From contig JACPDA010000004.1 in assembly GCA_016184225.1 (NCBI GenBank), positions 538,763-602,762 of the forward strand: a stretch of DNA of 64,000 nt. Direction: 5' to 3'. The notes under the pieces are model-generated. The model was not told the DNA's origin. It did no database searches and saw only the letters and a list, made by a program, of their open reading frames with translations. The translations under genes were made by a program, and so were the position numbers. Position 1 is the stretch's first letter, and every line of letters starts with the position of its first letter. The stretch is from Candidatus Daviesbacteria bacterium (GTDB taxonomy: Bacteria; Patescibacteriota; Microgenomatia; Daviesbacterales; UBA10151). Shown in pieces: positions 57,682 through 58,426 of the stretch.

Positions 57682-57725
57682 ATTTAGCTTTACACCTTCG
57701 AGGTGGAAAGAGGTGGAAACCTAAA
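57682..57725. repeat. REP-like palindromic element flanking the RAYT gene at its 3' side
   Basis: tttagctttaCACCTTCGAGGTGgaaagaggtggaaacctaaac. The 13-nt core is a perfect palindrome. Confidence 0.75.
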
Positions 57726-58368
57726 CTTCATCATCTAAAAGATGGTGTTTAATAACTGCCAGTTGACTAGCATAATCAATTTGATTTTCCACAAACTCCT
57801 GATATTTTTCCGGAGACTTAAAGAACCCTAACACCTCATTAACCATACAAAAGAAGGGTTCATTCTTGATATACTCCAAATAAGAAGACCATTTATAGTG
57901 CTCCGGTTTCTTTACCAATCCTGAGACCACTGGATTAAGGTGAATATAACGGGTTACATGGACTAATTGCTCATCTGTTTCAATTCGCACTGCTTTGAAA
58001 GCGCCTTGTAAAAGTGGCCCGATCCGCCCGTATTTAACGTTAAAATACTTTGTATAACTGTTAGAAAGCTGACTTATAAAGATAGAGATGCCTTTGTCTT
58101 TTAATTGTCTAGCTAAAAAATGAAAATGATTCGGCATTAGGCAGTAACAGATAACTTCGACCAACTTTTCATTTAAAAGCGGTTTAAATAAGTTAGATTT
58201 TTTAAATTGGGAAAATTTTGGTTTGGGGCCGGAAAATTGATAGTAGTAGAAAGTCTTTTGGAACTTCGTATAGTCTCTAGGTTGGGTGTAAATATTTCTC
58301 TTTTCACTACCCCTATTGTAAATATGATAGTACTCACCACTTACTAAAGGAGTATTTCTTCCGGGCAT
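57721..58368 (-). mobile_element. REP-associated tyrosine transposase (RAYT; IS200/IS605 TnpA-like HuH Y1 transposase)
   Basis: YHIYNRG, HuH motif LMPNHFHFL, QGAFKA, YIHLNPV, catalytic-region YKWSSY. Flanked on both sides by REP copies. Confidence 0.7.
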
Positions 58369-58376
58369 AATTAAAG

Positions 58377-58426
58377 TTTAGCTTTACACCTTCGAGGTGT
58401 CAAGCTAAAGAGGTGTCCAACTAAAT
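58377..58426. repeat. REP-like palindromic element flanking the RAYT gene at its 5' side
   Basis: gtttagctttaCACCTTCGAGGTGtcaagctaaagaggtgtccaactaaa. Confidence 0.75.

Follow-up and report, generated by a model that had tools for sequence, protein, structure and literature searches.

A probable REP-RAYT system with repeat copies inside genes in Candidatus Daviesbacteria

Systems of repetitive extragenic palindromes (REPs) and REP-associated tyrosine transposases (RAYTs) have been studied almost only in Proteobacteria, and whether they benefit their hosts is debated. An account of the proteobacterial systems was reportedly given by Nunvar in 2010. The known examples include the bacterial interspersed mosaic elements (BIMEs) of Escherichia coli with the enzyme TnpA-REP, and the REP doublets forming hairpins (REPINs) of Pseudomonas with their RAYT (PMC3116915; PMC3479197; PMC5581495). 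RAYTs generally follow a housekeeping-like pattern (Bertels 2017, PMC5581495), and intragenic REPs have been described from Opitutus, Rickettsia and other bacteria, where repair genes (uvrA, uvrB) are among those preferred and dimers encode 20-30 aa (PMC3733652). A literature search for RAYTs or REPINs in the Candidate Phyla Radiation (CPR; Patescibacteria) returned nothing relevant. Here we describe a stretch of 64,000 nt (the window, in whose coordinates all positions are given unless a related locus is named) from the ~0.77-Mb genome of Candidatus Daviesbacteria, a member of the CPR, in which a gene for a protein of 215 aa (57721..58368, minus strand) is bracketed by two short hairpin repeats that recur elsewhere. 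Sequence, a structural model and analogy with the known systems together make it likely that this is a REP-RAYT system in a CPR genome, the protein being a domesticated, chromosomally fixed HUH/Y1 nuclease-ligase for single-stranded DNA of the TnpA-REP type.

The RAYT-like protein, its locus and its bracketing hairpins

The original prediction had recognised the product of this open reading frame (ORF) as a RAYT, or IS200-like HUH transposase, and was borne out by profile and fold searches. The protein carries the motifs YHIYNRG, LMPNHFHFL, YIHLNPV and YKWSSY, and a hidden Markov model search places it above the gathering score of Pfam family PF01797 (Y1_Tnp; 27.2 bits vs 23). Its sole NCBIfam match is REP_Tyr_transpos (NF047646; E 3.6e-15, residues 65-161 only), a model matched by 21 of the 21 aligned relatives, none of which matched an IS200 model in the NCBIfam scan. 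The HUH motif (H81-F-H83) and the catalytic tyrosine (Y141, in RYIHLNP) are invariant across 80 homologs and align with the HMH motif and the tyrosine of 4ER8, the structure of E. coli TnpA-REP, which also came first when the family profile was compared with the PDB (E 0.004), with ISDra2 TnpA behind. A first AlphaFold model, built on 21 close homologs, had a predicted local distance difference test score (pLDDT) of 47.6 and was not used; the model taken for the fold search was built on 80 homologs (pLDDT 85.1) and places the HUH motif on a strand (82-88) and Y141 on a helix (132-148). With Foldseek, the top match of this model in the PDB was again 4ER8 (E 1e-5, target-normalised template modelling score 0.73), ahead of the TnpA of IS608 and ISDra2; the top matches included 4ER8, 2A6M, 2XM3, 2VJV and 2EC2, each with a probability of 1.00. 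On the evidence of these profiles and the predicted fold, the RAYTs are the nearest curated family, and the protein is closer to TnpA-REP than to IS200/IS605 TnpA. The existing annotation of the exact protein, which is encoded on a contig of 769,731 bp, is only "transposase". The family is large, with 427 clusters (50% identity) at E <= 1e-30 and 9,594 at E <= 1e-10. An ORF that also encodes 215 aa (28345..28992) was considered as a second RAYT and rejected, having neither a Pfam match nor the motifs.

The gene is positionally stable and housekeeping-like, and does not behave as an insertion sequence (IS). The exact protein occurs on 13 contigs, and in the eight places listed (five similar ones were collapsed) it has the same neighbours, the contigs being 100% identical to the window over their overlap. 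The order uvrB-uvrA-(few genes)-RAYT-transglutaminase-uvrC is kept in the related loci L020, L031/L032, L036, L117, L119 and L121, and RAYT identity among the genomes sharing this synteny is 50-76%. A gene that moves with its ends into multiple unrelated loci, as is expected of IS200/IS605 elements, was not found; across samples and species the same locus and the same neighbours were recovered. In the window the gene lies inside a nucleotide-excision-repair neighbourhood (51060-61743), and LexA is encoded close by in L117 and L121. Two relatives (L020 863-1517; L030 2286-2934) have RAYT frames that are apparently split by frameshifts while their flanking REPs are intact; these are pseudogenes or assembly errors.

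That two related elements bracket the gene was confirmed. The start-proximal REP (58377..58425, plus strand) reads TTTAGCTT-TA-CACCT-TCG-AGGTG-TC-AAGCTAAA, then GAGGTG...CTAAA, forms a two-tier hairpin at 58377..58409 (-11.1 kcal/mol as single-stranded DNA, z -3.67) and ends 9 nt from the ATG of the RAYT; the element recurs at the equivalent place in L014, L020, L032 and L121. The stop-proximal REP (57683..57726, plus strand; z -3.91 as single-stranded DNA) reads TTTAGCTTTA-CACCT-TCG-AGGTG-GAAAGAGGTGGAAAC-CTAAAC, and the TAG stop codon of the RAYT (57721..57723) falls within its 3' arm. Common to both are TTTAGCTTTACACCTTCGAGGTG and, downstream of it, AAAGAGGTG and CTAAA. The 13-nt core, CACCTTCGAGGTG, had been taken for a perfect palindrome but consists of a 5-bp stem, CACCT/AGGTG, and a loop of three nucleotides, TCG; because this loop is asymmetric, the palindrome is imperfect and the core has an orientation. 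Folding bore out the CACC...GGTG stem that had been anticipated, and the canonical copies form two-tier hairpins as single-stranded DNA (z -3.7 to -3.9). Both copies beside the gene have the same orientation, and relatives show both direct and inverted arrangements. The likeness to the proteobacterial REP/BIME-RAYT arrangement, which had been proposed for this locus, stands as far as hairpins flank the gene but not for their orientation, which is direct here and inverted in the classical case.

A promoter-like pair directed toward the RAYT (TTGACA-17 nt-TAAACT; 58375..58403, minus strand; 10 of 12 positions matched in a consensus scan) overlaps the hairpin of the start-proximal REP. Of 59 relatives, 36 have a TTGAC(A/G)-like box 34-44 nt upstream of their start codon. 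The upstream REP may, therefore, contain the promoter of the gene and, because of this overlap, the enzyme could regulate its own expression.

Hairpins beside RAYT relatives and copies in the window

A scan of metagenomes yielded 80 loci with RAYT relatives (39-62% identity), 58 of which have both flanks. When the 90 nt on either side of the gene were compared, 53 of these 58 loci had an exact word of 11 nt or more in common between the flanks (median 17); for flanks of different loci the median is 7, and 21 out of 600 such pairs reach 11. The shared words are hairpins, the stems of which depend on the lineage (e.g., CACCTCGGAGGTG, ACAAACCTGGTTTGT, CACACCGGGAGTG, ACGATCCGGTATCGT). Alignment of 26 upstream flanks from different lineages revealed compensatory changes at 8 of the 8 stem pairs; 84.6% of the cells were paired compared to 68% after shuffling, and the covariation score was 0.455 compared to 0.181 for shuffles (none out of 500 reached the observed score) and at most 0.217 for slid controls. 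In L121 the REPs flanking the RAYT (9418-9471 and 10123-10160) have arms like those in the window and a flipped loop (TCG vs CGA), so that the inner hairpin can invert independently of its arms. Given this flip of the loop against the arms, orientation defined by the loop is unreliable. A replication strand bias was considered and rejected: all five singletons in the window (5/5) lie on the G-rich plus strand, and at other loci 16 copies agree and 7 disagree with the GC skew.

The prediction that copies of the core are dispersed, at position 41, in gatA and as a doublet at 35497..35545, was upheld by a census of the window. Exact cores start at 41, 20232, 35499 (minus strand), 35527, 57693 and 58387, and cores with one mismatch at 35758 (minus strand) and 35782, i.e., eight matches compared to 0.04 expected, a number reached by none of 100 shuffles. 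A wider class, CACCTnnnAGGTG, occurs ten times (0.00 expected), which adds sites at 3612 and 9193. Four sites or pairs were missing from the earlier list, the sites of which were otherwise all recovered: a doublet in rsmI (35758..35794), a pair of CCACCTCCCAGGTGG hairpins, a variant REP at 56601 and a hairpin in uvrC at 60544. The copy at 41..53 (plus strand), upstream of an ORF (123..1355), has degenerate arms and folds weakly (z -1.45). The variant REP (56601..56637, plus strand; z -4.27), TTTAGCTTG-CAACCT-TTC-AGGTTG-AAGCGTAAA with the core CAACCTTTCAGGTTG, lies between two divergent genes and has the same arms and a compensated stem; this CAACCT/AGGTTG stem type flanks the RAYT and occupies gatA in two other genomes. 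The two CCACCTCCCAGGTGG hairpins, both from the scan for the wider class, lie in frame in a Wzy-like (O-antigen ligase) gene (3611..3625), where the encoded peptide is SHLGGG, and in intergenic DNA ~20 nt 3' of an ORF on the minus strand (9192..9206; ORF 9225..10835). The inverted doublets at 35499..35539 and 35758..35794 each form a hairpin of 13 bp (z -5.33 and -4.56, respectively) and have the hallmarks of REPINs, an inverted pair of REPs with a short spacer that makes one long hairpin; the other copies are singletons. Rfam models at gathering thresholds identified five tRNAs only in the window.

The core also proved to be repeated beyond the window. In a collection of other genomes, the 19-mer GCTTTACACCTTCGAGGTG gave 24 matches; eight of these fall in high-GC genomes and look like chance matches, and exact copies are present in eight low-GC genomes, including metagenome-assembled genomes (MAGs) of Daviesbacteria and Patescibacteria. 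In four of the eight low-GC genomes the 19-mer again lies beside a RAYT (63-73% identity), and in those genomes it is also found in frame in ddl, a murT-like gene (twice), uvrB and rsmI. Across genomes the 5' arm and the hairpin of the REP are conserved and the 3' arm is variable. Three MAGs labelled "uncultured Gammaproteobacteria" (CAZDEH01, CAYSNN01 and CAYICZ01; L011, L014, L015, L019, L020, L022, L023, L026, L027 and L028) have a GC content of 0.33-0.40 and carry rsmI, the PEP-like gene, uvrC and a RAYT at 58-77% identity to the window; because these genes are Daviesbacteria-like, the three labels are probably wrong.

Copies of the REP within coding sequence had been predicted for this window and were confirmed for gatA, rsmI and other genes, although such copies are not new as such (Di Nocera 2013, PMC3733652). 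The element has no stop codon in four of its six reading frames, three of which are seen in genes, one giving HLEGVKL; copies can, therefore, persist in variable loops of essential genes and at the ends of convergent genes. The copy in gatA (20219..20257, plus strand) encodes 13 aa and shares 27 identical nt with the start-proximal REP. It had been described as in frame and without a length change relative to Bacillus subtilis GatA; it is in frame indeed, and the segment differs by one residue in length from Staphylococcus aureus GatA. In 79 out of 111 GatA orthologs of Daviesbacteria the same segment has the same length (31 aa) and contains motifs of either the KFSFTPSRW or the KFTxQPxRL type, which at the DNA level correspond to CACCT-nnn-AGGTG and CAACCT-nnn-AGGTTG hairpins with a common TTTA(G/C)(C/G) arm. 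Compared with L113, the gatA element is identical at 41 of 42 nt, the gene as a whole at 70%; no other 42-nt stretch of the gene is as well conserved, although the protein loop in which this one lies is the most variable. The REP has long occupied this loop of GatA throughout the clade and is not a fresh insertion. In L115, gatA (1271-2665) has a 21-nt hairpin, TGGGCGGCTAACCCA, nested in the REP loop and in frame (FSFTPSWAANPRMRWEPKL). Elsewhere in the window's gatA (~20800-20822) a 7-aa insert, TSSGQAR (residues 415-421), is absent from ~48 aligned orthologs of Daviesbacteria.

The doublet at 35499..35539 lies where rsmI meets a convergent PEP-like ORF. The final 13 codons of rsmI and its stop codon are part of this doublet, and the PEP-like ORF runs through it to 35696, which adds ~65 codons and creates a convergent overlap of 199 nt, in agreement with the ~200 nt that had been predicted. 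Orthologs of the PEP-like protein (L015, L028) align only up to residues 505-512, just before the start of the doublet (that of L015 ends in ...LRKVS*), and its Pfam domain ends at residue 502. Comparison of the rsmI terminus with its orthologs likewise favoured the prediction, as the doublet is absent from the orthologous junctions in L015, L028 and L121. Because the alignments and the Pfam domain end before it, the doublet was inserted over the two stop codons, and its absence from these junctions is the clearest evidence of a lineage-specific gain. The second doublet, CACCTGGAAGGTG / CACCTTCCAGGTG (35758..35794), lies in frame within rsmI (HLEGEQHRHLPGE) and corresponds to an insert of ~16 aa relative to E. 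coli RsmI (5HW4). Among orthologs the length of this internal site is hypervariable, and many of them encode H-(L/P)-x-G, the translated hairpin, here; in L028, L015 and L121 it holds a canonical single REP. The part of uvrC that encodes the GIY-YIG domain has, relative to 1YD6, an insert of ~18 aa that L117 shares with the window and L119 lacks; a related hairpin, CACCCCGGGGGTG (60544..60556), lies in frame within this insert, and the assignment of the hairpin to the same REP family is tentative. The type of hairpin in one loop of uvrB differs between the window, L117 and L026.

Concordance within genomes, mechanism and alternative explanations

In five genomes the hairpins in gatA or rsmI have the stem that is also found next to the RAYT of that genome, and the stems differ between genomes. 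In the window, CACCTTCGAGGTG is found both at the RAYT and in gatA, within the 27 identical nt; in GCA_028712705.1 both sites have CAACCTGAAAGGTTG; and in Ga0209515_10000298 the RAYT flank has CAACCT-TTA/TAA-AGGTTG and gatA the same stem with a TCG loop. In GCA_964394845.1 and CAYICZ01 it is rsmI that carries the hairpin of the RAYT flank, CACCTTCGAGGTG in both cases. The closest GatA ortholog (L114, 83% identity) has the other stem type; the hairpin type does, therefore, not follow the gatA tree, which points to homogenisation among the copies within a genome.

By analogy with the IS200/IS605 family and E. coli TnpA-REP (PMC3479197; Ton-Hoang 2012, as far as cited in PMC5581495), the protein would recognise a small hairpin (a stem of 5-6 bp, a 3-nt loop and conserved arms) on single-stranded DNA, and would nick and rejoin the DNA beside it via a 5'-phosphotyrosine intermediate. 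REP units would in this way be copied or replaced elsewhere in the chromosome, as singles or as inverted, REPIN-like doublets, while the RAYT gene itself would stay put. The two bracketing REPs may be the cognate sites of the enzyme.

A hairpin on either side of a tnpA-like gene could also represent an autonomous IS200/IS605 insertion sequence, the two hairpins marking its left and its right end and those dispersed elsewhere being solo ends or derivatives resembling miniature inverted-repeat transposable elements. We consider this very unlikely, even though the protein belongs to Pfam Y1_Tnp, its fold also matches the TnpA structures of IS608 and ISDra2, and the hairpins in the window lie on the same strand like the ends of IS200/IS605 elements. 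The gene occupies one locus with conserved neighbours (uvrA, the transglutaminase gene and uvrC) although the RAYTs are only 50-76% identical, and contigs with the exact protein show the same context. Furthermore, no IS200 model is matched, the best structure is TnpA-REP and not an IS transposase, the protein has 215 aa with a C-terminal helical extension, and the flanks are often inverted in relatives. It is hardly credible that the matches inside genes, gatA especially, are native coding sequence that happens to resemble the hairpin and falls outside the repeat family. Coincidence of this kind would leave 27 consecutive nt, including the arm, identical to the REP at the RAYT flank without explanation, as well as the conservation of 41 of 42 nt in the most variable loop of a protein whose gene is conserved at 70%. 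The TPSRW and QPERL motifs correspond to compensated hairpin stems, and the type of hairpin is the one found beside the RAYT in that genome, observations which outweigh the constant length of the segment relative to S. aureus GatA and its occurrence, with a KF(T/S)xQPxRL-like motif, in 79 of the 111 orthologs.

Another explanation would regard the hairpins as regulatory or structural elements of the host (promoters, operators, terminators or mRNA-stabilising elements), spread by ordinary mutation, recombination and selection, with the Y1 protein having another role, e.g., in repair. Copies in frame in gatA, rsmI, uvrB, ddl and murT are unexpected for regulatory hairpins, however, and the 27-nt identity between gatA and the RAYT flank, together with the co-variation between genomes, calls for a process of copying; lineage-specific pairing of flank and RAYT in 53 of 58 loci is what a cognate pair of enzyme and site predicts. 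Despite the promoter-like box built into the upstream element, the position of several copies at the 3' ends of genes or between convergent genes, the low copy number and the location of the gene within the nucleotide-excision-repair cluster in six other genomes, all of which would fit with such a role, we regard this explanation as improbable.

Several observations weigh against a REP-RAYT system as proposed here. The NF047646 score of the protein (56.1 bits) lies below the equivalog cut-off of 80 bits, and the protein thus represents a divergent branch and not an equivalog of the modelled RAYTs. The stem lacks the adjoining GTAG or CGTC tag by which the described REP superfamilies are recognised (PMC3733652); TTTAGCTTTA precedes the stem, variable arms follow it, and the TTAG that is present lies 6 nt away from the CACCT/AGGTG stem and not at its foot. 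Representative genomes contain only 1-7 exact 19-mers each, and only four additional exact flank words were detected in 360 kb outside the RAYT flanks (+/-4 kb, 59 loci); the REP families are low-copy, and "dispersed" should not be taken for "abundant". A simple insertion does not explain the gatA copy, given that, the one residue aside, it entails no change in length relative to S. aureus GatA. The concordance of hairpin types rests on five genomes and is not universal, since in the same genomes uvrB and uvrC hold hairpins of other types than the local RAYT flank. Finally, the single-copy status of the RAYT and the genome-wide census are extrapolations from 64 kb plus fragments.

If a REP-RAYT system is accepted for these genomes, its copies may still be subject to homogenisation, whether through replacement or through conversion from other copies stimulated by nicks, for and against which we find the arguments about evenly balanced. 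A broader proposal, on which we lean to the side of doubt, is that in Daviesbacteria, and perhaps in other CPR bacteria with genomes of ~1 Mb as well, a vertically inherited RAYT keeps the REPs homogeneous, including those in the loops of gatA, rsmI, uvrB and uvrC, and that these are rewritten when its specificity changes. Were this true, the upkeep of the system in streamlined genomes and its tie to excision repair would argue that RAYT and REP serve the host, e.g., in the handling of single-stranded DNA at forks or repair gaps, and are not a tolerated parasite.

Other repeats in the window and comparison with known systems

The window contains further repeats. A second family of REPIN-like doublets, CACTCCCGGTGTG...CACACCGGGAGTG, has two copies of 50 nt, 94% identical and in frame in uvrB (52265-52314) and uvrC (60889-60938); its hairpin resembles the RAYT flanks of L043 and L095, so that either a second RAYT or a relic family may be present in the source genome. 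Hairpins of a third family, ACCCCGAT-TCA-ATCGGGGT, occur at 25781-25803, 34746-34768, 31576-31598 and 28396-28418, two of them in frame (dnaE and the PEP-like ORF); the copy in the PEP-like ORF encodes VDPDSIGVD, an insert of 7 aa absent from L028 and L015. This ORF has another insert of ~9 aa relative to its orthologs, SGRAALARMTE (34650-34690; residues ~228-240), which resembles the repeat-encoded gatA-loop peptides HPERSEG and SLRGA..ATKQS of other Daviesbacteria (P0252, P0267, P0303). Heptamer-type repeats (GAGTCTAGAGTCAAG, GGTGACAGGTTACAG, GGGGATAG) are clustered at gene ends (15184, 20926-21010, 51848, 53583 and 53814-53885; 21334, 21867 and 51683; 1-40) and encode a C-terminal extension of GatA of 20 aa, which is common to only one of ~30 orthologs. 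Two direct repeats of 147 nt, 99% identical (12093-12239 and 14047-14193), start with the 3' end of a tRNA-Asp gene (14189-14262, minus strand) and bracket ~1.8 kb with a Fic/DOC gene (12334-12960) and an ORF without assigned function, a region that looks like a small element integrated at tRNA-Asp; repeats of 87 and 38 nt are located at 11593, 12219 and 13175. At 45148-50571 a surface protein of 1807 aa (Ig-like, HYR, SpaA and SdrD domains) is encoded by DNA with long internal repeats (families D1, D2 and D5-D7).

The bearing of the RAYT locus on the debate about host benefit lies in the combination of a large family and a stable gene position in bacteria whose genomes are among the smallest and most streamlined known. 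As the repeat population is small, each copy can be traced across species, and the orthologous copies inside genes, with 41 of 42 nt conserved against 70% for the gene, provide a built-in clock by which concerted evolution or re-copying can be tested from public genomes. For the annotation of CPR genomes some caution is called for, since REPs lengthen ORFs, create false overlaps and add loops to essential proteins.

Like the proteobacterial REP/RAYT systems, the system described here has an HUH/Y1 gene at a fixed locus with apparently vertical, housekeeping-like inheritance, and short, lineage-specific hairpin repeats that bracket the gene and occur elsewhere, partly as REPIN-like doublets. 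It differs from these systems in the absence of a GTAG/CGTC tag, in a two-tier hairpin with an A/T-rich outer arm, in direct flanks, in numbers that range from units to tens of copies rather than hundreds, in the large share of copies inside genes and in its host, a CPR bacterium with a genome of ~0.77 Mb. The protein itself is ~15% identical to E. coli TnpA-REP and, at 215 aa, has an additional C-terminal helical region, and its constant position inside an excision-repair cluster sets the locus apart from the REP-RAYT systems described so far. With IS200/IS605 elements (IS608, ISDra2) it shares the catalytic fold and motifs and the subterminal hairpins on one strand, an arrangement also found in the window, whereas the gene in the window is immobile and has no tnpB, and the hairpins spread without it. 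The Rickettsia palindromic elements (RPEs), reportedly described by Ogata and co-workers in 2000, are said to measure ~100-150 bp and are thus longer than the REPs of the window, and to our knowledge they have no cognate transposase. Like RPEs and other intragenic REPs (PMC3733652), the copies described here are palindromes in frame in conserved genes, in this case uvrB, uvrC, rsmI and gatA, but many species have them at the same loop positions, and the stems in gatA and rsmI follow the RAYT flank of the same genome. Intragenic REPs are, therefore, not new in kind, and it is the signal of concerted evolution at orthologous sites inside genes that is the part worth following.

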